Of a stretch of DNA of 64,000 bases, positions 28,839 through 41,684 are shown piece by piece. Every line of letters starts with the position of its first letter. Position 1 is the first letter of the stretch. The notes below the pieces were generated by a model. The model was given only the letters and a program-made list of their open reading frames with translations. It searched no databases and was not told the origin of the DNA. Origin of the DNA: Candidatus Hodarchaeota archaeon (GTDB lineage Archaea; Asgardarchaeota; Heimdallarchaeia; Hodarchaeales; Hodarchaeaceae); NCBI GenBank assembly GCA_016840035.1, contig JAEOTC010000111.1, forward strand, positions 3,657-67,656, read 5' to 3'. Made by a program: the position numbers and the translations under genes.

Positions 28839-31763
28839 CTATGAACAGTTCACGCAACGAGCAACGACTTCTTCATTCTTAATTTTGACCTTCACTCGTC
28901 CACAGGTATCACAAACTTCTGTTCCACACTTCTTACAGACTGATAACAGCTCTGGAGCAAAAGATTTTTTACATCCTTGACATTGTTTGGGAGTATGTTC
29001 AGGACAATAAGTTGCTTCAGTATTAGGATCAAATGCGCTGCATTCCCCGCATAAACTCTGTTCACAAACCTTACATACTTCAGAATGGTCAAGACAAGCA
29101 GTTTTTCCACATTTTTGGCAAAATGTGATGTGTTCACTACAAAAGAGTTTCAAGCAGGTTGTACATACAAAAGTGGGAGGAGAAATTTCAACAGCCAATA
29201 ATGATTGATAGTAATTCTCAGTGCTTATCTGAGGACCGCATCCTTCACACATAAGTTCTGCATTACCATTATAGAGATTAAGATTCAAATGGAACTGATT
29301 AACAGTATCTTGATCACTTTGGTTTAGTTTGATTGAAAGAGGTATTGATAAACGTGGAACCCAATAAACTGATTTTTCAATAATAGAAACATCTGCTTTT
29401 CCAGGTCGATAAAGATCAGGTGGTACTCCTTGGCTTTTAAGAACCTCAATAGATTTATGAAAAGCCTCATAATTTTCCTGTTTTTCTTTAAATAATGCTT
29501 GCCGCTTTTTCTCATTGTTGGCGATTTGTTTTCTAAGTTCTTTCACTCGATCTTCATGTCTCATCTGTTTATTAGAGGTAGAATCAATGGATCTTTCGAT
29601 GGCTCTTATTGAACGTCCCTCTGCGGCACGTGCCTTCCTTTCAGCCTCTAGATTTTCAAGTCTCGAAAGAGTATCATCAAGCTTCTGATTCTCAGTTTGG
29701 AGTTTCTCCTCTAATCCACTAATTTGTGTGGATAATTTGGATAACTCTTTTCCAACTTTCTTCCCAGCAAGTTTTGAAATCTCATTTCTCTCGAATTCTC
29801 TTATGCGTTCCTGATAGATAGATTCCGCTTCAGGAAACGGATTTTGTGTATAGTACCAAATTAAGTTCTCAGGTAGTTTAGTAATTACCTCTTTATCGAA
29901 ATCAAGGAATTTATATCCAGTGAGGGGCTGAATTGCTAAATCCTTGGCAGGGAGGGAAGAAGCATGAATCCCTTCAATAGTAGTAGAATTCCAATCGATC
30001 TTTCGCAGATCAAATGTTCGTGACATTTCCTCCTTTATCTGAACTGGAAATTGTAGTTGTCCTTCTTTAATAGTTCTTTTGATGTCTATCAAAGTTTTTG
30101 TAAAGTACAGTGGAGAGTAGAAAATATTATAGGCTCCAAACTCGAGATTAATTCCATCCTGTTCTGGATTACCTCTGAGGCTCAACCTCTCCATGATTAC
30201 TGGGATGTACTCTTCATTTTCGGGCTTGATCTTAGGTTCAAGAAATCTTTCGGTAATTTTCCCCATAGCAGGCTTCTTAGCTTTGACTGAAACTGCAGAA
30301 ATAACTGTATCCTTTTTCATTTCTGGAGTTGGTTTCTTTTCTTCAGGTTGTACCTTTTTGGGTTTTGGGGGTTTAAGTGTAAGAGCAGATATTTCCGAAT
30401 TCGTTAATGGTCCTTTATGTAGACTTAGTAACCACCGTGTTTGAAGCATATTAACTCCATATCTGGGATTATAAGCAATGAAATTCCCAGGTTTCAGTGC
30501 TCTAATTTTACTCATTAATGATCTAAATTCCTCTTCAGTTCCACCACCACCTTCAAAGACAGGTTTTAGTGCACCTTGGACTTTAGCGATGTCTTGATTG
30601 GTTGCCAATCTACCCAAAACCCAAGTAGCGATATTTGATAACCCACGATAATCTAAATCTCCTGGATTTTGAGTTGCTAGTACACATCCCAACCCTGCTG
30701 CTCTTGCCTGTTTTAACAAGATTAAAAGCGCTGTTTTTGACGGAGGACTCAGAGATCCAGCAGGCATGAATCCATATAACTCATCAAAGTACATGATGGC
30801 GCGTAAACGACTTGTACCTCCTTTTGACCAGGCCCACCTTTGAACTTCCCCTAAAATTTCAGCAACAAAAGTATTTTTTTCGTCTGAATCAGTAATCTTA
30901 CGTAAGTCAAAAACAATTATAGGTGTTTTCTTCTCTTTGGTTGCTAAACCAATAAGCTTATCAAAATCAAGCTCTACACCTGGAACTGCACGGACCATCA
31001 AAGCATTAATATTACGAGCTAATTCTTGACGTTTAGTAGTTGAGATGAATTTATCAACAGAAAGAGAACCCACTTTTTTAAATGGGGGGTCTTGTATTCG
31101 TTCTATTAGAAGGTCTAAACCAACGGTATTTTGCTTTTCGTTCTCCCAAACATGTCGAATAATGTTATTTAGATAGATAACACGATTGTCTGTCGATGCT
31201 GATGTTCCAATTCCAACTCTTGATAGTAACAATTGTATTTTGAGATCTAACGCGCTTAAAACCGCATCAGGCGATTCTTCCATCATCTTTGAATAATTCT
31301 TGGGCTTTTCAAAGTGTGGAGTAAGAGAAATCTGGACTCCAGAGGAATTTTTTGGAGTAATTAATACTGTAGCCACTTTATCTGAATACTCTGCCTCTGC
31401 GGAAAGGTAATCATCACCAAAAGATTCTTCAAGTTTTTCCTCATATAAATTCACCCAATCTTCAGCTATTTCCTCTGGATCTCCACCGCCACGATCGTCT
31501 GCCTCCACTTTTGCATGAATAAGTAATTTATCTTTCGAAAAATCCCCAAAACCAATCCCTAAAGCACCAATATCTCCTTTAGGATCAATAGCAATTACAG
31601 GGATATTTGATCTGACTGCTTCTTCAACTATTGACTTGCACACAACTGTTTTCCCTGAACCACTTGCCCCTAATACCGCAGCATGTGTTAAAAAGGTTGT
31701 AGAAGGTAATTCAAATCTCTCTCCCTCGCTTAGTTTTCCAAGAAAAAACTTCGGATCAGCCAT
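28839..31763 (-). CDS. HerA/DUF853-like P-loop ATPase fused to Lys/Pro linker, coiled coil and Cys-rich multi-zinc C-terminus
   Basis: Walker A GASGSGKT followed by PVIAIDPKGDIG, Walker B AIMYFDELYGFMP, and VLATQNPGDLDY. Coiled-coil-like segment LSKLSTQISGLEEKLQTENQKLDDTLSRLENLEAERKA. The last 139 aa carry 21 Cys and 3 His in CxxC/CxxH pairs. Confidence 0.75.
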   Translation of the reverse strand: MADPKFFLGKLSEGERFELPSTTFLTHAAVLGASGSGKTVVCKSIVEEAVRSNIPVIAIDPKGDIGALGIGFGDFSKDKLLIHAKVEADDRGGGDPEEIAEDWVNLYEEKLEESFGDDYLSAEAEYSDKVATVLITPKNSSGVQISLTPHFEKPKNYSKMMEESPDAVLSALDLKIQLLLSRVGIGTSASTDNRVIYLNNIIRHVWENEKQNTVGLDLLIERIQDPPFKKVGSLSVDKFISTTKRQELARNINALMVRAVPGVELDFDKLIGLATKEKKTPIIVFDLRKITDSDEKNTFVAEILGEVQRWAWSKGGTSRLRAIMYFDELYGFMPAGSLSPPSKTALLILLKQARAAGLGCVLATQNPGDLDYRGLSNIATWVLGRLATNQDIAKVQGALKPVFEGGGGTEEEFRSLMSKIRALKPGNFIAYNPRYGVNMLQTRWLLSLHKGPLTNSEISALTLKPPKPKKVQPEEKKPTPEMKKDTVISAVSVKAKKPAMGKITERFLEPKIKPENEEYIPVIMERLSLRGNPEQDGINLEFGAYNIFYSPLYFTKTLIDIKRTIKEGQLQFPVQIKEEMSRTFDLRKIDWNSTTIEGIHASSLPAKDLAIQPLTGYKFLDFDKEVITKLPENLIWYYTQNPFPEAESIYQERIREFERNEISKLAGKKVGKELSKLSTQISGLEEKLQTENQKLDDTLSRLENLEAERKARAAEGRSIRAIERSIDSTSNKQMRHEDRVKELRKQIANNEKKRQALFKEKQENYEAFHKSIEVLKSQGVPPDLYRPGKADVSIIEKSVYWVPRLSIPLSIKLNQSDQDTVNQFHLNLNLYNGNAELMCEGCGPQISTENYYQSLLAVEISPPTFVCTTCLKLFCSEHITFCQKCGKTACLDHSEVCKVCEQSLCGECSAFDPNTEATYCPEHTPKQCQGCKKSFAPELLSVCKKCGTEVCDTCGRVKVKIKNEEVVARCVNCS

Positions 31764-31894
31764 TTTCCTTTACCACATTATTGTATTTGATGAAAATGAA
31801 TTAAATTAATAAATGAATCCTTTAGTTCACGGAATATATTAAACTAGTCAATTGCAAAAATACCAAGCATTTTCTATTATTTTGGAGGTTGACC

Positions 31895-32920
31895 ATGTCT
31901 TCAGCAAAATTTCCTATAATTACCTTAGAAGGATCTCCAGAAGAGATAGGTATACAACACGGAGAAATTTTGAAAAATAAAATTCATTCTACAGTTACCT
32001 GGTATAAAAAGGTCATATCAAAAGAAGAAAAACAGATATTAACGCTAGTGGAAATTTTTAAATTAACAATCGAGAATTTTGATCCCACTTACGCCTCTGA
32101 AATCGAAGCCATTGCGACTGGGGCTGATATAAATTCTAACTGGATCTATATGCTAAATTCACGTTCTGAAATCATGAATATCTTTCAAAATGAGTGTACT
32201 GCGGCATTTTTTAAGTCGTCAGCAATTTTAGGTCAGAACTGGGATTGGGCCGAAGATCTCGAAAATCTTGCCGTGATCATGAAAATTAAGAAACAAGATG
32301 ACAATAAACCTGACATACTCATGATGACGGAACCAGGCATTATTGGAAAGATTGGATTTAATTCAAATGGATTGGGAGTATGTCTAAATTTTCTTAATTC
32401 CGGAAAATTACCACGAGGTGTTCCAATACATATCCTTCTAAGAAAAGTATTGGAATTATCGAGTATTAACCAAGTTGGAAGATCTATTGGACCTTTTATG
32501 AGTGGAAAATCTGCAAATATTTTGATTGGAGAAAAGTCTGGAGAATATATCGATATCGAATTTGCTAATGATGAGCATTATTATCCGAACACAACTTCAG
32601 ATGCTTTTATTCACACAAATCATTATTTGATGAACAATGCTTTAAACAGTGATACAGAGAAATTAGCCAGTTCTTTCAGCAGGTACAATAAAGCCTTGAA
32701 CATTATTAAGAATAATCCCTCTAAAACAGTAGAGGATATGAAAGGAATATTATTGGATCGCACGAACAAAGCTCTCCCTATCTGTCGCCCCTATGTAGAT
32801 AATCCTGATATTGGGACAGTTGGTACAATATGTACTATAATCATGGACCTGAAAAACGGAAAAATGCACATCACAAAAGGTAGTCCCCTGAATACTCCTT
32901 TTTCTTCTGTTGAACTATAA
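31895..32920 (+). CDS. peptidase C45 / acyl-CoA:6-APA acyltransferase-like Ntn-hydrolase
   Basis: LEGSPEEIGIQHGE N-terminus, candidate autoprocessing nucleophile in QNECTAAFF, and GQNWDW. GGAGGT lies 5 nt upstream of the ATG at 31895 (the track lists TTG at 31889). Confidence 0.7.
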   Translation: MSSAKFPIITLEGSPEEIGIQHGEILKNKIHSTVTWYKKVISKEEKQILTLVEIFKLTIENFDPTYASEIEAIATGADINSNWIYMLNSRSEIMNIFQNECTAAFFKSSAILGQNWDWAEDLENLAVIMKIKKQDDNKPDILMMTEPGIIGKIGFNSNGLGVCLNFLNSGKLPRGVPIHILLRKVLELSSINQVGRSIGPFMSGKSANILIGEKSGEYIDIEFANDEHYYPNTTSDAFIHTNHYLMNNALNSDTEKLASSFSRYNKALNIIKNNPSKTVEDMKGILLDRTNKALPICRPYVDNPDIGTVGTICTIIMDLKNGKMHITKGSPLNTPFSSVEL

Positions 32921-32999
32921 AGCGAGAATTATCTCTCCTTTACCACATTGGTTTCTATTTAAAGGACCCTTTTTATCCATTTTTTAAGGTGTTACTCAT

Positions 33000-34040
33000 A
33001 TGACTGGATATTCTATCAAGGAATTTGATCCCCCAAACGTTGAAGATGATCAATTTTGGGATAATTTCTATTCTTTCTATACAAAATTTGTCAAGGACAT
33101 ACATCCTAACGATCCTCTTACTCCTAAACCACGAATAGTAAAATCATTGAAAGATCCTCATCCAGACTATCACATCAACCATTGGTTGGTATATACTTCC
33201 GATAAGGAAATCGTTGGTTGGGCAGATAATTATATTTCAAAGGAAACTCATCCTGCATACGATACAAACAAACATGTGGCAGGTTGTGATACAGTTATAT
33301 TAAAAGAACATCGTCATAACGGATTAGGGACACAACTCTTCCGATACCACTTGAAAATCGTAAAAAAGTATAATCGTACAATAATCCAAGCTGGAACCTC
33401 TGAGGAATCAGGGCATAATTTCTTAAGGAAATTTGGTGGGAAAGAAGCAATTCAAGGTTCAGAGAATCGTTTGCAGATGAATGAGGTAGATTGGTCACTT
33501 ATGCAGCAGTGGATAGATGATGGCCCAGAAAGAGCAAAAGAGGTGAATCTTGAACGATTCGTTGATGTTTCCGATTCTGATATTGAGGAATATTGTGTAA
33601 TCTATACTGAAACCATGAATCAACAACCCTTCGGAGAGCTTGAAGGGAGAGTAAAGGAAACACCCGATTCACGAAGACAGAGTGAGGAGAGACATCGTAA
33701 AAGAGGAGGAAAATGGACAACTCTGATTTCAAGAGAGAAAAATGGAAGGATCAGTGGTTTAACAGAGGTTTTTTATTACCCAGATAAACCTTCAATGCTT
33801 TATCAAAATTTAACTGGAGTAAAAGAAGAATATCGAGGTAAGGGACTGGGAAAATGGCTTAAAGCAACAATGCTCAAATGGATAAGTGAAGAATACCCAG
33901 ATGTTAAAACAATTGTCACTGGTAATGCCACTACTAATGCACCCATGCTTTCAATTAACCAGAGAATGGGATTTAAAGAATATAAGTCAGGATCGGAATA
34001 TAAATTTCAGGTTGAAGAGCTTGAAAAGCTACTCGATTAA
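33000..34040 (+). CDS. tandem GNAT-domain acetyltransferase
   Basis: Two acetyl-CoA loops: EHRHNGLGTQLFRY and EYRGKGLGKWLKATML, plus NAPMLSINQRMGF. Confidence 0.75.
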   Translation: MTGYSIKEFDPPNVEDDQFWDNFYSFYTKFVKDIHPNDPLTPKPRIVKSLKDPHPDYHINHWLVYTSDKEIVGWADNYISKETHPAYDTNKHVAGCDTVILKEHRHNGLGTQLFRYHLKIVKKYNRTIIQAGTSEESGHNFLRKFGGKEAIQGSENRLQMNEVDWSLMQQWIDDGPERAKEVNLERFVDVSDSDIEEYCVIYTETMNQQPFGELEGRVKETPDSRRQSEERHRKRGGKWTTLISREKNGRISGLTEVFYYPDKPSMLYQNLTGVKEEYRGKGLGKWLKATMLKWISEEYPDVKTIVTGNATTNAPMLSINQRMGFKEYKSGSEYKFQVEELEKLLD

Positions 34041-34292: not shown

Positions 34293-34877
34293 GTGGTAAA
34301 TGTTGGCATTTTAGGAGATATGAACTGCGGGAAAACATCAGTATTTGTACGATTTATGAATTCATTAGCTGCCTCAAATGAGAAAATTATTGCTGGTTCT
34401 CCTGGAGGACCAGAAATGTATACTACTCAGACTGTAGATTTTATTAGATTCACTCATAAGGGATTTATTCATGTCTTATACGGCACTGGAGGACACACAA
34501 CACCTATCACTGATTATTACCGTGTTTACGTTTTAAGAAATGCCAACCGATTCCTTTGCATGTTTGATTTGTCGATTGAATTAGAACCTCAACTAGCTTT
34601 CTACAAGAACCTTGAGATTCCAACGAAGCAAGTAACAATCTTCCTGAACAAATATGATCTCGCACAAGAGAACTATGCTGAATATAAAGAGAAAGTAGAA
34701 GATTTTTTCATTAACGACCAGAAAAAACTGATCAAAGAAATTCTCCCTACAGTCGCGATAAAAGTCGAGGAAGGGAAATTCAAAAAAGAAACAGAAAATT
34801 GTCTGAAAGGAATCCTTGATTTGTGTGAATTTGATAAAGACGCCTCTGCATTCGATGTTTGGAATGGTCAAGGATAA
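34293..34877 (+). CDS. small P-loop GTPase with atypical G3 motif
   Basis: G1 GDMNCGKTS, G2 Thr in TTQTVDF, G3 LYGTGGH (Tyr where the DxxG Asp is expected), G4 LNKYDL (NKxD). GTG start with AAGGAG 10 nt upstream. Confidence 0.7.
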   Translation: MVNVGILGDMNCGKTSVFVRFMNSLAASNEKIIAGSPGGPEMYTTQTVDFIRFTHKGFIHVLYGTGGHTTPITDYYRVYVLRNANRFLCMFDLSIELEPQLAFYKNLEIPTKQVTIFLNKYDLAQENYAEYKEKVEDFFINDQKKLIKEILPTVAIKVEEGKFKKETENCLKGILDLCEFDKDASAFDVWNGQG

Positions 34878-34900
34878 GAATTAAAAAAAAGGTAGGAATA

Positions 34901-35806
34901 ATGGAATCTTCTGATCCTTTTGCTCAACTGGTTGAAACATTATCAGTAATAGAGCATCAGAATCGAATTTTATGCCTGTTGGCGGTGTATTTGGGTCAAA
35001 AAGCAGATCAGAATACAATTCAAGGTATTACTGATATTCTTTCATCTCTTTTAGGGAAAGATGAGCAATTTACTACAGCGAAAACCCGAGGTCTGATCAC
35101 TTCATTAGTGAATGGAGGAATCTTAGAACGGGAACGTGAGAAAGTAATAAGCTCTACGAAAGTTTCCTTCCATTCTATTAGTCCTCTTGGGTATATAGTC
35201 CTGCTATATGTCCTACAAACCTATATTATTAAGATTGACCCTGCTTCTATTAATTGGGATACCACTCGTTTTCAAGACTACGCCGATTCAGAAGAAAAAA
35301 TGCTCTACTATACCATAGATGCATTACTTATTCAAGAGCCTAAAATCAACCGAATTCTTACTTCCCTACGAAGTGGAAAGGATCCCAAGAAAATAAGGCT
35401 ATCGAAACCACTAAATATTCCTTTAGAGAAACTATTTTCAGGAAAAACAGGGAATACAGTATTTAAAATTATGGAGGAATTGATCTGGGATTACTTGCAT
35501 TCTAACACTGGATTAAGTAAATCCACACTCGATCAAACATCAGATTCCTCAATAAGTAGTCCTTTGAAAAAACTTTCCACTTTTTTGATGGTAGAAGAAA
35601 ATTGGGGCAAGGAAAGACGTTTTAGACTGTCAATTCACGGGATATTTCTTTTACCTGTATTTGCTTTGCTTATAAAGCATTTTTCTGTGGATAAATCAAT
35701 ATTCCCATCATTAAAATTATCTCGCTTAGAAAAGGATGAGAATTATTGGATTGCCCTTACAAAGTTAGGAAATTCATTCTTTAAAACAGTATACAGAATA
35801 TCTTAA
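34901..35806 (+). CDS. hypothetical protein, probable tandem winged-helix domains
   Basis: The ATG at 34901 lies 23 nt after the GTPase stop; the track's 34859 start would overlap that gene. Two helix-turn-helix-plus-beta-wing-like segments: ILCLLAVYLGQKADQNTIQGITDIL...GGILEREREKVISSTKVSFHSISPLG and FKIMEELIWDYLHSNTGLSKSTL...MVEENWGKERRFRLSIHG. The fold call is unverified. Confidence 0.4.
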   Translation: MESSDPFAQLVETLSVIEHQNRILCLLAVYLGQKADQNTIQGITDILSSLLGKDEQFTTAKTRGLITSLVNGGILEREREKVISSTKVSFHSISPLGYIVLLYVLQTYIIKIDPASINWDTTRFQDYADSEEKMLYYTIDALLIQEPKINRILTSLRSGKDPKKIRLSKPLNIPLEKLFSGKTGNTVFKIMEELIWDYLHSNTGLSKSTLDQTSDSSISSPLKKLSTFLMVEENWGKERRFRLSIHGIFLLPVFALLIKHFSVDKSIFPSLKLSRLEKDENYWIALTKLGNSFFKTVYRIS

Positions 35807-35886
35807 CGCTATTTTTCTCTACCATTGCGTAAAGTTAAAAACGCAATACTTCTTAGAGTTCCGCCTAGCTTATTGAGGTTATATCA

Positions 35887-37284
35887 GTGCTGAAGATTTC
35901 TGATGAAGCAGGAAATCTACATTATCTCCCTCTTGTAGATATTCATACTCACATAGGAAGGGTGAAAATAGCAACCACAAAGGGTAGTTCTCAACGAATA
36001 AACCAACCTCAAGACATTACCAACCTATACCAGAAATTACAATATGAAATTACCTCACGGATTAGTCAGAACCAAGATAAGTATCCTATTAACATTCCTG
36101 ATGCTCAGGAATGTGTAGAACCCCTTCTTCCTATTGTAAACACAATATTAACCCATCAATCAGCAAAATCAAGAGCTTTCTTGGTAGATGTGATAGTTAC
36201 ATTCCCATTTAATGATATATTTCACTTAAAAACCTCCCCCAAATTTGTAAAAAGCAATCGATATGTACGTTATCAAGTGAATACTTTCGATAACACCTTT
36301 AGATTTCTTCCCTTCTGCCGAGTAGATCCTACCGATTCTGATGCTGTAAATGAGATTCAGAGTTCTATCACTCAGGGAATGTATGGCTTGAAACTCCATC
36401 CACTGTCTCAAGGATGGATTGACAGAATTAAAACTGCAGAGACTATGAATGTATTGAAAACTGCTGGAAATCTGAACATTCCAGTAATTTTCGATGTACC
36501 CAACAAGGGTGTGGCTCTTGATATTACAACCATCACACAAGAGGCGCGTCAAGAATCAGAAAATCCTGTCAAAGTAATACTAGGACATACAGGATTCGAT
36601 TATTCTTCCTCAGAGATATTTGATTGTCTGTCTCAGGAGGGGATGTATGCAGAGACTTCTGGTATGAGAGGAAAGGATGTTGAGATTTTTTTTAATAATG
36701 TCATATCGGTCCCTGATTGGGAAAATAAACTTTTATTTGGCACGGATCACAATTATTTTAGTGTTCTACAGGCAACAGATGTCATAACATTTCTAATTTC
36801 AAACAAGTTTCAAATAATGTTGTTAGAGAATGATATTGAAGCAAAACCACTAGAAATTGCATTTAAAATATTAGGAGGCAATGCTTTAGAGATTATCCCA
36901 ACTGCATGGGATCCTATAACAGAAAAAACCCCTCAATTAAAATTTAAAGTTTTGAAAGACGTTTTCATACAATTTCTAAAGAAATACATAACTTCGGAGG
37001 GAAACTATCTGCGGGTTGATCAAGGCTTCGATGAATCCAGAAAAGAGGTAGTTCAAATCATCACTTTTGGAACTAGTAATACAAAATTCTCTTTTATTAT
37101 ATTTGAAACATCCAATCTACGAGAAATATTATTACAATCTATTCATCCAGCTATTCGAAAAGTAAATTATAGTGAGCAAGCAATATTTCCCGTGCTTTCA
37201 ACTTTAAAATCATTAAAGAGAGCAAAAAAACTTTCCCTAGAGAAATTGCAGGCAACAGTGATTAAAATTTTGTCACAAGAGTGA
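35887..37284 (+). CDS. amidohydrolase-2-like TIM-barrel metal hydrolase with about 130-aa C-terminal extension
   Basis: VDIHTHIGR (HxH), YGLKLHPLSQGW, ILGHTGFDY, LFGTDHNY (metal Asp). GTG start with GAGGT 8 nt upstream. Confidence 0.6.
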   Translation: MLKISDEAGNLHYLPLVDIHTHIGRVKIATTKGSSQRINQPQDITNLYQKLQYEITSRISQNQDKYPINIPDAQECVEPLLPIVNTILTHQSAKSRAFLVDVIVTFPFNDIFHLKTSPKFVKSNRYVRYQVNTFDNTFRFLPFCRVDPTDSDAVNEIQSSITQGMYGLKLHPLSQGWIDRIKTAETMNVLKTAGNLNIPVIFDVPNKGVALDITTITQEARQESENPVKVILGHTGFDYSSSEIFDCLSQEGMYAETSGMRGKDVEIFFNNVISVPDWENKLLFGTDHNYFSVLQATDVITFLISNKFQIMLLENDIEAKPLEIAFKILGGNALEIIPTAWDPITEKTPQLKFKVLKDVFIQFLKKYITSEGNYLRVDQGFDESRKEVVQIITFGTSNTKFSFIIFETSNLREILLQSIHPAIRKVNYSEQAIFPVLSTLKSLKRAKKLSLEKLQATVIKILSQE

Positions 37285-40200
37285 ACATAATGGAATTAAA
37301 AGACTACATATTAGAGACACAATTATATTTTTCCCATGGGATAGAAGTTGAAAATCATTTAGTGAACGAAAGCACAGGGGAAGTTCTAGTCGGAAATGAA
37401 CTGATTGAGACTTGGGAACAAATGTTTGCTGGTGCAGTGAAATACTTAGAAAAGTTGAAAAAAGCAAAACACACACCAAAAGCCATAGCTAAGAAGATCG
37501 TGAAAATTGAGGTAACGGAGGAATTAAAAAGAGAGAAAAGACTCAATTTTATCTTCGTTCACTATCGATTAGGAAAAAAGACAATTCGAGTCAATGTCTT
37601 TGGTCCTGATCCAAATATATCCCAGATCACTTGGTTATTAGAACTTGTTACCCCTCCATGTGAGTATTTGGAAGAAATTGCCTTCTGGATTGATTCTCTT
37701 TACGCTGCCGCTGCTCATGGCCTTTCAAAAGTAAAAAATAAATGTACTCTGTTACCTTTAGGATTAAATCCCATGGAAAAACGAGTACGAAGTGGTTTGA
37801 CTTGTGGCGAACATCATCACATAGGTATTCCCTCCTTTTTCCGTGCACCCGTTTATAACATGCTGAGAAACTATATTCCCCACCTAATTGCGTTAAGTTC
37901 AACTTCTCCGTTTCTCGACCAGAAACCAAGTAGTAAAATAATTTTCAAGGAGAAAGATGGGAAAAAACAAGTGATTAGCAGAGGAATTCATTCGTATCGA
38001 TTAGCAAACAATACTGGTCAAATGGGACCAAACATCCCTCAGTACTTGCCTATTATTGATGATATGACATCTCGAGAAGACTTTGCCAACTCGATACGCA
38101 AAGTTCCCCCTGAGGATCGGATGATAGATCTTTTTCCATATACGGACTATTCGACAATAGAGTTAAGATTTTTCGATGCCCAGCCTTATAAAGAAAACCG
38201 CTTAGCTATGGTTTTACTTATCCAAGCATTAGCTCAGAAAACAAAAAAGTTAATTAAAGATAAATTACCTGTTCCAACTGTATCTTCAAAGAGTTTATAT
38301 GAGAATCGCCGAAAATCAATTCAATTTGGTCTTTTAGCTCAATTTACAAGAGATGAAACCCTAACAGGCGAGTTTGCATGGTATTACAATTATGATATTG
38401 AGAATGGAGTAAAAGCCTCAAAACTATTACATTCCGTTCTAGCCATGCTTATATATATTGAAGATGAAATACTGGATCTTGGTGAGAAATATGTCGACCA
38501 GGTACTATTACCAGTCTTGGGTTCAAAGAAATTTGCCCCTCCATTCACGGTATGTGAATATCTTCTTTCTCTTTACACAGAAAAAAAAGAAAATGCAGCT
38601 GAACTACTCAAAGAATTATACTATGAGGAAAAGCTTTCATACACTCCCGAAGTAGCAGGTGATTTCTCATCATTCCTTGTTGAAAATCCTCCTGACTCTT
38701 TCACAGAGGTCGACACTCAGAAAGCGAACTTAAGTCAGCTTTTGAAGAAAGATATTTCCACAAGAGATGTATTTGCAAGCAAGCCCAAACCAAAACCCAA
38801 AAAACGAAAAAAACCGAAACCAGTAGTTCCCAAAGAAGAACCAGTCGAAGTAACGAAGAAAAAGAAACCAGAGGTAGTACGAGCCAAAAAAGAACCTAAG
38901 AAAAAGGTTCCTAGTAAAAAACCAAAGGTTGTAGAGCCTACTAAACCTAAAAAGCCTGTTAAAAAAGTTACACCTAAGAAGGAAGTAAAAAAGAAACCTA
39001 TAGATCCGAAACTTACTCCTATCAAAGAAGAACCGCAGGTTTTCTCCGCATTTGATGAAAATGAGGATCTTGAGATCTATTCTCCGATGATCGAAATTGA
39101 ACCTAAGTATCAGAAAATTAATTCTAAAATTGCGAATATAATGAGAACACGCCGTCAAGAAATTGAGACAAAGCGTGTAGTCTTCTTTCGTGAACATCTG
39201 AAGGAGGAAGAGTCGTCTTTCAAACCTTTCCCAAAAAAAAGAGCAGCGATTTTTCCCGCTCTATTTTCTGGCCCTGAATTATTTGGATATATTGAACTTA
39301 CATTTGGTGACATTAAGAAAGTTATGTATCAATTTCGTAATAATCCAATTACTCTGAAATTTTATGATAACCAAACAGACAAAGAAATCTCTTCCATTAG
39401 AACTTTTATTGATATTTCTAGAATTGAAAAACGTCAAATGGTAAGAATTCCATGTTCCGTTAACCTAGGAGAATTATATGGGAAGTTACAAATCAGAGTA
39501 GAAGCCGTCACTTCCACAAATCACAGATTACTACCTGAAAACTTTACATTTAAAACAGAACGCAAAGATGACATTAGTATTTCTCCTAAAGAATTCTATA
39601 TAACAAGTAACTTTGGTTCTGTAGAGTGCATTTACAAAGCGACCAATGATTCCAAGAAAGAAGAACGAGGGGAATTAACACTCATATTAGCAACACAAGC
39701 AGCAGCAACACCAATAGTCCTTTATGAGGAGAAATTTTCTCTTCAGCCTCGTGCTTCATATGAGTTGGCCAGGAGTATTGATTTATCCATTGATTACCAG
39801 CATAGTTCTTTTTATATCATTGCCCGTGTAACTACAGGGATGCTTAAGAAAAATCGATCATTTAAGAGTATACGCGTACCAGTATTACGTGAAATTGTGG
39901 TTGATTGGTCTTATGAAACAAAGGCTGGTTCTAAAAATGACCTTTGGCAAGGGGTGGAATCCAAAACACACTACTCTGTCGATTTTGTTTTTCATTTTCT
40001 TCGATCTTTACCTCCTGTAACCATAACTATTTATATAAACACGTTTCCTCAAGGAGAAACAAAGAAATTAACGAGCTTACGGTTGAAGCGGTACATAGAT
40101 AAAGGGGATGAGTTTCGTGCACCAACAGTCAAATTCAAAACCCCTAAAAAATGCGGTTACTTAATATTCGATGCACAAATTCGGACAGAAAAAGGTATTC

Positions 40201-40289
40201 TACCAATGCATTTAATCTCCGAACCAATTGGGGTATATGCATTGACTACTAAAGCCACATTCGAAGAAAGACGAAATTTAGATCTGTAA
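37281..40289 (+). CDS. GCS2/YbdK-type carboxylate-amine ligase fused to Lys/Pro-rich linker and about 430-aa beta-rich C-terminal region
   Basis: Motif-by-motif match to my recollection of E. coli YbdK: HGIEVENHLVN (LGIELEMQVVN), LLELVTPPCEY (MLELATDVC), CGEHHHIGIP (GQHVHVG), LRNYIPHLIALSSTSPF (FVPHFIALSAASPY), STIELRFFDAQP (GTVEVRVMDTP). The GTG at 37281 overlaps the upstream stop by 4 nt; the ATG at 37290 is an alternative. Confidence 0.8.
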   Translation: MNIMELKDYILETQLYFSHGIEVENHLVNESTGEVLVGNELIETWEQMFAGAVKYLEKLKKAKHTPKAIAKKIVKIEVTEELKREKRLNFIFVHYRLGKKTIRVNVFGPDPNISQITWLLELVTPPCEYLEEIAFWIDSLYAAAAHGLSKVKNKCTLLPLGLNPMEKRVRSGLTCGEHHHIGIPSFFRAPVYNMLRNYIPHLIALSSTSPFLDQKPSSKIIFKEKDGKKQVISRGIHSYRLANNTGQMGPNIPQYLPIIDDMTSREDFANSIRKVPPEDRMIDLFPYTDYSTIELRFFDAQPYKENRLAMVLLIQALAQKTKKLIKDKLPVPTVSSKSLYENRRKSIQFGLLAQFTRDETLTGEFAWYYNYDIENGVKASKLLHSVLAMLIYIEDEILDLGEKYVDQVLLPVLGSKKFAPPFTVCEYLLSLYTEKKENAAELLKELYYEEKLSYTPEVAGDFSSFLVENPPDSFTEVDTQKANLSQLLKKDISTRDVFASKPKPKPKKRKKPKPVVPKEEPVEVTKKKKPEVVRAKKEPKKKVPSKKPKVVEPTKPKKPVKKVTPKKEVKKKPIDPKLTPIKEEPQVFSAFDENEDLEIYSPMIEIEPKYQKINSKIANIMRTRRQEIETKRVVFFREHLKEEESSFKPFPKKRAAIFPALFSGPELFGYIELTFGDIKKVMYQFRNNPITLKFYDNQTDKEISSIRTFIDISRIEKRQMVRIPCSVNLGELYGKLQIRVEAVTSTNHRLLPENFTFKTERKDDISISPKEFYITSNFGSVECIYKATNDSKKEERGELTLILATQAAATPIVLYEEKFSLQPRASYELARSIDLSIDYQHSSFYIIARVTTGMLKKNRSFKSIRVPVLREIVVDWSYETKAGSKNDLWQGVESKTHYSVDFVFHFLRSLPPVTITIYINTFPQGETKKLTSLRLKRYIDKGDEFRAPTVKFKTPKKCGYLIFDAQIRTEKGILPMHLISEPIGVYALTTKATFEERRNLDL
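38781..39015 (+). repeat. low-complexity Lys/Pro-coding tract (aaa/aag/cca/cct rich) inside the ligase fusion gene
   Basis: Encodes KPKPKPKKRKKPKPVVPKEEPVEVTKKKKPEVVRAKKEPKKKVPSKKPKVVEPTKPKKPVKKVTPKKEVKKKPIDPK. It also generates long Phe-rich antisense pseudo-ORFs. Confidence 0.7.
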
Positions 40290-40394
40290 TGAAATACCTA
40301 TGAATTTGGATTGACCTTAAAGGATGTAATTTTTAAAGGACACATCAACCTAGACTGAAACAACTCAAGATAACTATAGCAAGGAGACTTTCTC

Positions 40395-41684
40395 ATGACC
40401 AAAATTCCATTGAATGTTGTAAATGTTGGCAATATTGAGGGAAGAGCTTATCTTCATCCTCAAGACATAGAAAAATTGGAAATTAATGAATTCGATTATG
40501 TAAAAATGGTAACTGAATGGGAGGATTGGGGAGCAGTTCAGATTCTTTTATCAGATGAGGTAGAGCAGGGTACAATTGCAGTAGATGGTAGCGTACTTTC
40601 ATCAGCGAATATATCGGATGGTGATGCGGTTGAAGTCGACGTAGTTACTGCTACAGCAGGTATCAAATCGATTAAGCTGGGAATCGAACCTCTTGCTGGT
40701 CAAGAAGTGGAAGAAGCGATTTTATGGATTGCTACTGAATTTGAACAACTTTCTACCCTTTTAAAAAATCGTCCAGTGTTCAATAATCTACAAATCGGAT
40801 GGGAAGATTGTCCAATAGGTAATTTAACAGTCAGATTTCTCGGTGCAGACCCTCCGATACCTGAGGAGAATATTGGAATTGTGGATCCCACTGGAAGAGA
40901 AGTGGAGATTAATATAATTCCATTTACTGAAATGAGTTTTAACGCCGTATTGGTTCTTGATGTCTCAGGAAGCATGTCCAAGAAAGATATGAAAGTACAG
41001 AACATTAGTGGTGCATTAGAAGGTTTAAAAAAGGGATTAGATGAGTCAAATGAACTGAATCAGTTTATAGAAAAATTCCAAGATGGAAAGAAAGTTTCTA
41101 GAGTTGATGCAGCTGCGATGGCAATAATGTTATTCATGTCATTGAAGATTGCTAAAGGATGGGGAGAACAAATCCAATTGTTAACTTTTTCCGGTGAAGT
41201 GGAAAAATTTGCTCTCGGAGAGGCAAACGTAATCTCATGTGTTGGAGAAACGAAGAAAGCAGGAATCGAAAGCATCATAGACCATGTTGTTCAGAAAACT
41301 GCTGAAAGTACTGGTTTAACATTCCTAAGTGGTGCTATAGATCAAGCATATAAGAGCATCGCTAGTTTTGATGATAATCCCACTATCCAGAAGAAGAATC
41401 CAACCATGATTATTGTTCTTACTGATGGTAATCCAAATAAAGGAAATGGGCTAGGAGTCAATCCCATTCCAGTTGTCAAACAGCATGTTGAACAATTACC
41501 TGAAGTCGTGCTGTATGCAATTGGATTAGGAGAAGCTGATCGGTTAATGCTTCGCAAAATCGGTGAAATGGGTCGTGGGGGAAGCCTGATGGCGGACGAC
41601 TTGGAAACACTGATCGATTTCTATGATTCACTTGCTCAGAATTTCCAGATGGTCGTAAAAATGAAGAAGGAGCCCGAAGACTAA
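40395..41684 (+). CDS. CDC48-N-like (double-psi barrel-like) domain fused to a von Willebrand factor A domain
   Basis: N-terminus RAYLHPQDIEKLEINEFDYVKMV...GTIAVDGSVLSSANISDGDAVEV resembles CDC48/VAT N domains. vWA MIDAS AVLVLDVSGSMS (DxSxS), plus LLTFSG and IIVLTDGNPN. AAGGAG lies upstream. Confidence 0.7.
   Translation: MTKIPLNVVNVGNIEGRAYLHPQDIEKLEINEFDYVKMVTEWEDWGAVQILLSDEVEQGTIAVDGSVLSSANISDGDAVEVDVVTATAGIKSIKLGIEPLAGQEVEEAILWIATEFEQLSTLLKNRPVFNNLQIGWEDCPIGNLTVRFLGADPPIPEENIGIVDPTGREVEINIIPFTEMSFNAVLVLDVSGSMSKKDMKVQNISGALEGLKKGLDESNELNQFIEKFQDGKKVSRVDAAAMAIMLFMSLKIAKGWGEQIQLLTFSGEVEKFALGEANVISCVGETKKAGIESIIDHVVQKTAESTGLTFLSGAIDQAYKSIASFDDNPTIQKKNPTMIIVLTDGNPNKGNGLGVNPIPVVKQHVEQLPEVVLYAIGLGEADRLMLRKIGEMGRGGSLMADDLETLIDFYDSLAQNFQMVVKMKKEPED

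Follow-up and report, generated by a model that had tools for sequence, protein, structure and literature searches.

A HerA/YjgR-type ATPase with a coiled-coil and zinc-array arm beside a small GTPase gene in Hodarchaeales: a candidate switch-plus-motor pair

The stretch of DNA analyzed here (the window, 64,000 nucleotides (nt) of contig JAEOTC010000111.1 from Candidatus Hodarchaeota archaeon) carries on its reverse strand a gene for a 974-amino-acid (aa) protein in which a HerA/YjgR-type ATPase domain is followed by a long arm ending in a cysteine-rich array (Table 1). An earlier note, made from the letters alone, had described this open reading frame (ORF) as a HerA/DUF853-like ATPase with a linker, a coiled coil and about six zinc sites. 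The ORF and all of the motifs it quoted are present, and the Pfam DUF87 match, the hairpin in an AlphaFold2 (AF2) model and the ligand count bear out the proposed outline. In the window the ATPase gene is divergent from a C45-type peptidase gene and a small GTPase gene lies two inserted genes away, while in 17 other loci the ATPase gene immediately adjoins a small GTPase gene.

By its sequence the 974-aa protein is a P-loop ATPase of the FtsK/HerA superfamily with intact catalytic motifs. Pfam PF01935 (DUF87, the HerA central domain) matches at 31.9 bits against a cut-off of 23.2, and PF05872 (HerA_C/DUF853), which scores 19.2 bits here, just under its cut-off of 22, is matched by many homologs. 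The ATPase domain carries IDPKGD (aa 59-64), YFDE (aa 325-328) and ATQNPGDLDY (aa 363-372), and in an alignment of 25 homologs Walker A, Walker B, KQAR (aa 351-354) and TQNPGD (aa 364-369) are all invariant. A weak sequence match to YjgR (11kk) in the PDB covers aa 7-82 (E 9e-4), and PADLOC matches mad8 (E 7e-14) together with several HerA defense models; the PADLOC and NCBIfam matches are restricted to the generic ATPase core. Canonical HerA has an N-terminal HAS beta-barrel, which is missing here, as Walker A starts at residue 32 and only ~25 residues precede the core. From the FtsK/HerA family we infer that the protein would assemble into a hexameric ring with a central pore.

Beyond the ATPase domain, a basic linker containing the Lys/Pro stretch KPPKPKKVQPEEKKP (aa 463-477; window 30333-30377) leads into the arm. 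A Lys/Pro-rich tether between catalytic and accessory parts also occurs in the nearby GCS2 ligase (within 37281-40289). The AF2 model of aa 500-840, built on a 42-sequence alignment with a predicted local distance difference test score (pLDDT) of 89, contains a sheet with strands at 546-567, 570-585, 792-813 and 821-829 and an antiparallel hairpin ~100 Å long (helices 646-714 and 720-778), in agreement with the coiled coil proposed earlier. The motif AEGxS..A.ERSI.S at the hairpin tip is conserved and S725 is invariant among the 25 homologs. Neither the arm nor the zinc array is covered by a Pfam model, and ESM-Atlas feature searches with the tail and the platform reached only unnamed clusters, below 0.9. 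Foldseek against the PDB gave no match at E <= 1e-3 for either the arm model (aa 500-840) or the tail model (aa 795-974), and VIA alignment of the arm model matched coiled coils only.

The C-terminal array is sharply delimited. There are only 2 cysteines in the first 800 residues, whereas 21 of the 23 in the protein fall within the last 139 (hypergeometric P = 9e-17). The earlier note had given the 21 Cys and 3 His of this tail correctly and listed 11 knuckles, overlooking CEGC at aa 839-842; the true count is 12. Twelve knuckles provide 24 ligands, which fits six zinc sites, and the array is accordingly predicted to hold about six structural zinc sites. Conservation of the tail, set beforehand as a point on which the earlier proposal could fall, was observed in 25 Asgard homologs (31-90% identity), where 7 Cys are invariant and 12 more Cys/His positions are conserved at >=90%, and in other phyla as well. 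The number of knuckles ranges from 5 to 19 across homologs, and in the 1020-aa homologs an extra segment of ~50 aa corresponds to four more knuckles. The AF2 model of aa 795-974 (pLDDT 84 overall, >88 over aa 865-974) consists of short hairpins that bear CxxC at their turns, and after each of these comes CxxH/C on a helical turn.

An exhaustive VIA search with the tail model returned the RIM zinc finger as the best match (2cjs_C, Z 5.1), with FYVE domains and the FYVE-related fingers of Rab effectors (Slp4, melanophilin, rabphilin) at Z 4.2-4.8; PHD, LIM and AN1 fingers score lower (Cuz1 AN1, Z 3.5), and the KAP1 B-box region reaches Z 2.6. Such scores are typical for generic cross-brace binuclear fingers, and the modeled tail resembles FYVE, PHD and LIM fingers weakly. 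From the knuckle spacing and the DSSP pattern of the model we infer three binuclear cross-brace modules in which knuckle i would pair with knuckle i+2; the spacing of the last module (C928-x2-C-x11-C-x2-C-x4-C-x2-C-x15-C-x2-C973) is compatible with an eight-ligand cross-brace. The resemblance to B-box fingers suggested earlier did not hold up, as zf-B_box (PF00643) gave no match at E up to 10, the nearest model being an ANCHR-like BBOX (E 3.6), and in structure the modeled tail is matched best by cross-brace fingers of the FYVE, PHD and LIM types (Z 3-5). Membership of the FYVE family was rejected at 14.6 bits against 27.8 for PF01363 and for lack of the motifs that mark phosphatidylinositol 3-phosphate binding. 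FYVE domains are recognized by WxxD, R(R/K)HHCR and RVC; the last module has LLSVCKKCG in place of RRHHCRxCG, and ARCVNC alone resembles RVC. AN1 membership was likewise rejected (PF01428, 14.3 bits against 27.9). The Asgard tails are acidic (isoelectric point (pI) about 5.1-5.8), which argues for protein docking over nucleic-acid binding, and the array may serve as the effector or recognition part of the protein.

The conserved neighbor of the ATPase gene encodes a small GTPase of a narrow family. By tblastn over the loci of 20 genomes, the two genes are immediate neighbors in every locus of the genus whose flank is long enough, with intergenic gaps of about 215-920 bp. In LC_3 and two other contigs the divergent neighbor of the ATPase gene is a GTPase of ~195 aa, and in a genome of a different Asgard family (G133) the GTPase gene lies upstream on the same strand with a gap of 42 nt. 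In a further genome (G129) a contig end truncates the GTPase gene, and 80 nt into another contig the ATPase gene begins, consistent with adjacency. Orthologs of the GTPase occur in 23 of 400 Asgard genomes, 20 of which also have the ATPase. The ATPase has the conserved genetic association with a specific GTPase that is looked for in a small-GTPase effector. The earlier description of the gene as monocistronic and divergent from the C45 gene is right about the divergence in the window; the implied lack of a partner does not stand, given the adjacent GTPase in the 17 other loci and the inserted state of the C45 and GNAT genes. This insertion into the divergent intergenic region (31889..34040) is present only in the window, in G058 and, as C45 alone, in G061, and is absent in 13 other loci; it is recent, restricted to the closest relatives and no part of the system. 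Fragments of 39 aa and 27 aa from C45 and GNAT are retained in G062 (L039 11554-11796), which suggests a later deletion of the insertion there.

Table 1. Features of the ATPase locus, with positions in the window
Feature	Position	Strand	Evidence or remark
Whole ATPase gene, 974 aa plus stop (P0001)	28839..31763	-	Open ORF; full-length homologs at 31-90% identity
HerA/YjgR-type P-loop ATPase domain, aa 1-455, without N-terminal HAS barrel	30399..31763	-	Pfam DUF87 and HerA_C; PADLOC HerA/mad8; PDB 11kk (YjgR) and 8wiv (HerA), both weak
Walker A, GASGSGKT, aa 32-39	31647..31670	-	Invariant in 25 homologs
Walker B, IMYFDE, aa 323-328	30780..30797	-	D327 and E328 invariant in 25 homologs
Basic Lys/Pro-rich linker, aa 456-505, pI 9.9	30249..30398	-	Length and sequence variable among 25 aligned homologs
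Beta platform, first half, aa 506-640; long strands 546-567 and 570-585	29844..30248	-	AF2 pLDDT 89; homologous to bacterial relatives (hhalign 98.4%)
Helical segment, antiparallel coiled-coil hairpin, helices 646-714 and 720-778	29409..29843	-	AF2; 25-homolog alignment
Return strands closing the beta platform, aa 786-835 (YWVPR, NLNLYNGN)	29259..29408	-	AF2; W801 and P803 conserved; strand also in bacterial forms
Predicted zinc array, 12 CxxC/CxxH knuckles, 21 Cys and 3 His, aa 836-974	28842..29258	-	Ligand conservation; AF2; fold search
Small GTPase, 194 aa, conserved partner gene	34293..34877	+	Adjacent in 17 loci of the genus, LC_3 and G133; phyletic overlap
Gene for 315-aa protein after the GTPase (Hodarchaeales/LC_3 order), link to ATPase uncertain	34859..35806	+	No Pfam or PDB match
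C45-type peptidase gene	31889-32920	+	Pfam; lineage-specific insertion
Double-GNAT gene	33000-34040	+	Pfam; lineage-specific insertion

Further genes follow the GTPase in a common order. In LC_3 and the two other contigs these encode a ~310-aa protein, an amidohydrolase, a GCS2 ligase of ~1000 aa and a CDC48N-vWA protein, and the same five genes, from GTPase to CDC48N-vWA, occupy 34293-41684 of the window. Of the 400 Asgard genomes, 240 have the GCS2 ligase and about 27 have the ATPase; in G133, G129 and G116 the two genes either sit on different contigs or are separated by >500 kb. An obligate link of the ATPase to the ligase-hydrolase-vWA trio is ruled out by the phyletic counts: the link to the GTPase is tight and that to the trio is loose. 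No gene for NurA, Mre11, Rad50 or another nuclease partner neighbors the ATPase gene in the window or was found in the 20+ related loci, and Sir2, DUF4297, MADS or other defense partner genes are likewise absent from the window and the related loci.

Full-length homologs of the ATPase extend from 90% down to ~31% identity, in records labeled Hodarchaeales and, for some, Heimdall-, Hermod- or Thorarchaeota. Among the 400 Asgard genomes full-length copies are patchy: 19 of the 21 that belong to the window's genus have one, and a few other families do as well. The combination of ATPase and zinc tail also occurs in Nitrososphaerota (P0077, P0120), Thermoproteota clusters, Baldrarchaeota, Undinarchaeota and Woesearchaeota, and the Cys/His ligands are kept in the Asgard, Nitrososphaerota, Undin- and Woesearchaeota copies. 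Outside Asgard and at 30-35% identity neither such a GTPase nor another recurrent partner gene was found, the neighbors being housekeeping genes; a zinc-tailed ATPase of 858 aa in Woesearchaeota (L082 5019-10363) lies between TFB-like and ABCE1-like genes, both typed by N-terminal sequence only. Phage and plasmid collections contained no copy, by which an origin in mobile elements was ruled out. Retention in small DPANN genomes, the housekeeping neighbors and the absence of phage or plasmid matches together speak for a role in the cell.

The arm is a module attached to HerA-type ATPases, Mrr nucleases and the partners of SNF2 helicases. A search with aa 480-974 against 1.84 billion cluster representatives (E <= 1e-3) matched only 33 proteins, the majority of them DUF87 ATPases; one match, a eukaryote-type C2H2 protein (P0135), was discarded as spurious. 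In P0131 and P0134, Pfam identifies an Mrr_cat endonuclease domain joined to the same arm. P0131 aligns across platform, hairpin and return strands (hhalign 97.7%, E 2e-12), and P0134 from the late coiled coil through the zinc array (tblastn E 4e-13). These proteins (L073 6001-7629) fuse a Zn-ribbon and Mrr_cat to the arm, and their Atlas cluster (n=122) is mostly from Methanobacteriota. Four further proteins (P0133, P0136, P0137, P0140) combine an uncharacterized N-terminal domain and a coiled coil with very long arrays of a 15-residue period, C-x2-C-x4-C-x2-H-x3, and in two lineages the gene for such a protein (P0136, P0140) overlaps an SNF2/Helicase_C gene that lies upstream of it. On archaeal metagenome contigs (L075 4343-7896, L076 367-3920, L077 1-2326), a coiled-coil/Cys-array gene overlaps the stop codon of an upstream SNF2-family helicase gene, and this pairing looks like an undescribed operon. 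Among the results of the Atlas fold search were archaeal DUF87 clusters, one Mrr_cat cluster and phage Amidoligase_2 clusters. The phage proteins (Uroviricota, ~390-426 aa) contain a Cys array structurally like the tail (TM score 0.39-0.48), and 14% of one of these clusters is annotated as LIM.

Several observations concern the partner gene and the flanks of the ATPase gene. The GTPase has G1 GDMNCGKT and G4 NKYD, with a G3 motif, GTGGH, that lacks the Asp, and its best Pfam match, GTP_EFTU, scores 26.3 bits against 26.5, just below the cut-off. PDB sequence searches with the GTPase and its 315-aa neighbor returned nothing useful, and the 299-aa winged helix-turn-helix and 297-aa genes beside a Thor-labeled copy have no detectable homology to the 315-aa gene of the window. 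In G398 (L061 8121-11767) an orthologous GTPase (47% identity) occurs without a HerA-type neighbor; on one side of it is a 223-aa uncharacterized protein and on the other a JAB/MPN protease, after which comes an uncharacterized protein of 520 aa. A block of ~45 nt that includes CTAAAGGATTCATTTATTAATTTAATTCATTT (window 31789-31833) lies ~25-70 nt upstream of the ATG. Its conservation extends to the five closest relatives, with or without the insertion, and it is probably the core promoter.

The catalytic motifs, the domain anatomy, the conservation of the arm and its ligands, the modularity of the arm and the GTPase linkage are direct observations, and the pairing of ATPase and GTPase suggests a switch-plus-motor pair that has not been described before. 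We tentatively favor a ring-forming motor of the HerA/YjgR clade with tethered coiled-coil/zinc docking arms, coupled in one Asgard subfamily to a dedicated small GTPase. The ATPase core would form a hexamer that threads a polymer, and each subunit would carry, on its flexible basic tether, a rigid arm made of the beta platform, the ~100 Å hairpin and a six-zinc rod. The threaded polymer would most likely be DNA or nucleoprotein, because of the superfamily, the Mrr nuclease fusion of the arm and the SNF2 operons of related arms. The six acidic zinc arms might act as docking antennae for proteins, and the neighboring GTPase would be a nucleotide-dependent switch that binds the arm and thereby gates or localizes the motor. 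A stronger form of this proposal, which we consider doubtful, is that the coiled coil and FYVE-like arm constitute a true GTPase-binding effector, by analogy a prokaryotic counterpart of the Rab/Arf-effector logic of EEA1 and rabphilin, in which a small GTPase switch would recruit or gate a hexameric translocase.

Several points weigh against a GTPase-coupled motor. GTPase binding, the hexamer, the zinc content and the substrate are predictions, the divergent adjacency could reflect a shared promoter only, and the case for DNA as the substrate comes only from the domains to which related arms are fused and the genes with which they share operons. The fold of the beta platform is unmatched, the model of aa 500-840 aligning through its coiled-coil hairpin only. 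In three genomes (G397-G399) the GTPase is present but no full-length ATPase was detected. No such GTPase lies near the homologs at 30-35% identity (Baldr-, Undin- and Woesearchaeota, Nitrososphaerota and paralog-like copies in Hodarchaeales), so that it cannot be essential to the core activity of the family.

One alternative is a stand-alone housekeeping HerA/YjgR-like motor, as in the bacterial, DPANN and Nitrososphaerota relatives, whose adjacency to the GTPase would be a matter of co-regulation or genomic accident and not of physical partnership. Most of the wider family lacks a conserved neighbor, the bacterial relatives have the ATPase and arm with no GTPase, and the GTPase persists without the ATPase in G397-G399. 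Against this, the adjacency has persisted through a switch from divergent to co-directional orientation and through the insertion of two genes, and members of a rare GTPase family co-occur with the ATPase in all but three of the genomes that have them; we consider this alternative rather unlikely.

A motor or unfoldase serving the ligase-amidohydrolase-CDC48N/vWA module, a putative protein-tagging system whose tagged substrates the arms would read as Mpa/ARC reads Pup, appears improbable. The trio does lie within 2.5 kb in Hodarchaeales, in LC_3 and, reordered, on the Thor-labeled contig, and the phage Amidoligase_2 proteins bear a structurally similar Cys array. However, the ligase is far more widespread among Asgard genomes than the ATPase and is unlinked to it in G133, G129 and G116, and FtsK/HerA motors are mostly DNA pumps. 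We consider it quite improbable that the protein is an antiviral defense motor of the HerA class (of the Sir2-HerA, DUF4297-HerA or MADS Mad7/8 type) with the zinc array as its sensor. The mad8 and other HerA defense matches in PADLOC, the patchy Asgard distribution, the variable number of finger modules and the Mrr nuclease fused to the same arm elsewhere would all suit such a role, but the PADLOC matches stop at the generic core, the examined loci hold no nuclease, Sir2 or methylase partner and no defense-island context, the gene is syntenic and near-universal in the genus, it is retained in reduced DPANN genomes between the TFB-like and ABCE1-like genes, and phage and plasmid collections lack it. 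Finally, that the Cys-rich tail is lineage-specific low-complexity noise without function is hardly credible: module number does differ between homologs, but the ligand positions are invariant over the whole identity range and across Asgard lineages and other phyla, which refutes lineage noise, the AF2 model is confident (aa 865-974), and the same array is reused in other architectures.

For over half of the 974-aa protein, comprising the arm and the zinc array, we found neither a Pfam model nor a relative of solved structure nor any literature, yet it is conserved from DPANN to Asgard, and the arm is common to thousands of bacterial proteins. As the arm occurs on three kinds of DNA enzymes, identification of its binding target would annotate several families together. 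The ATPase-GTPase pair offers a tractable two-protein system in which to ask whether GTPase-effector coupling to motors predates eukaryotes.

Searches of Pfam, NCBIfam, PADLOC, the PDB and the literature found no characterized family with this architecture, and comparisons are with systems that share part of it. YjgR/DUF853 (PF05872; 11kk) has, like the ATPase here, an FtsK/HerA P-loop core near the N-terminus without a HAS barrel, and it has no known partner or function; YjgR is ~500 aa long, whereas the present protein adds a 520-aa tethered arm and, in Asgard, a GTPase gene partner. Canonical HerA systems (HerA-NurA; Sir2-HerA and DUF4297-HerA, 8wiv; Mad7/Mad8) belong to the same ATPase superfamily but lack the C-terminal arm and zinc array, and the present protein in turn has no HAS domain, no nuclease, Sir2 or DUF4297 neighbor and no MADS operon. 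In MADS, Mad7/8 form an ATPase-nuclease module within an eight-gene operon (PMC13662399), and nothing similar is present at the loci here. Bacterial HerA-like proteins of ~800 aa (for example P0079, Clostridiaceae; P0103, Calycomorphotria hydatis) share homology with the present protein from the ATPase through platform and hairpin to the final W-x-P strand (29-32% identity across 73-82% of the query; arm hhalign 98.4%, E 4e-15). These proteins, also uncharacterized, differ in having no Cys array, a Gly/Ala-rich hydrophobic hairpin tip and no GTPase neighbor.

Two further comparisons concern the arm. HP0958/FlgZ (3na7) resembles it in placing a zinc module after an antiparallel coiled-coil hairpin (Z 9.6, over the hairpin only), but has one C4 ribbon and neither an ATPase nor a beta platform. 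EEA1, rabphilin-3A, melanophilin/Slp, RIM and the RH domain of Rubicon have, like the present protein, a long coiled coil followed by C-terminal cross-brace fingers, and the tail model aligns with the fingers of such GTPase effectors (1joc EEA1, 5x6t Slp4, 2zet melanophilin) at Z 4.7-4.8 over ~50 residues and ~3 Å. These proteins are effectors of small GTPases, and the present protein is linked to a small GTPase genetically. Unlike the FYVE-type effectors, the present protein would combine such an arm with a fused ring ATPase and with six predicted zinc sites in place of two.

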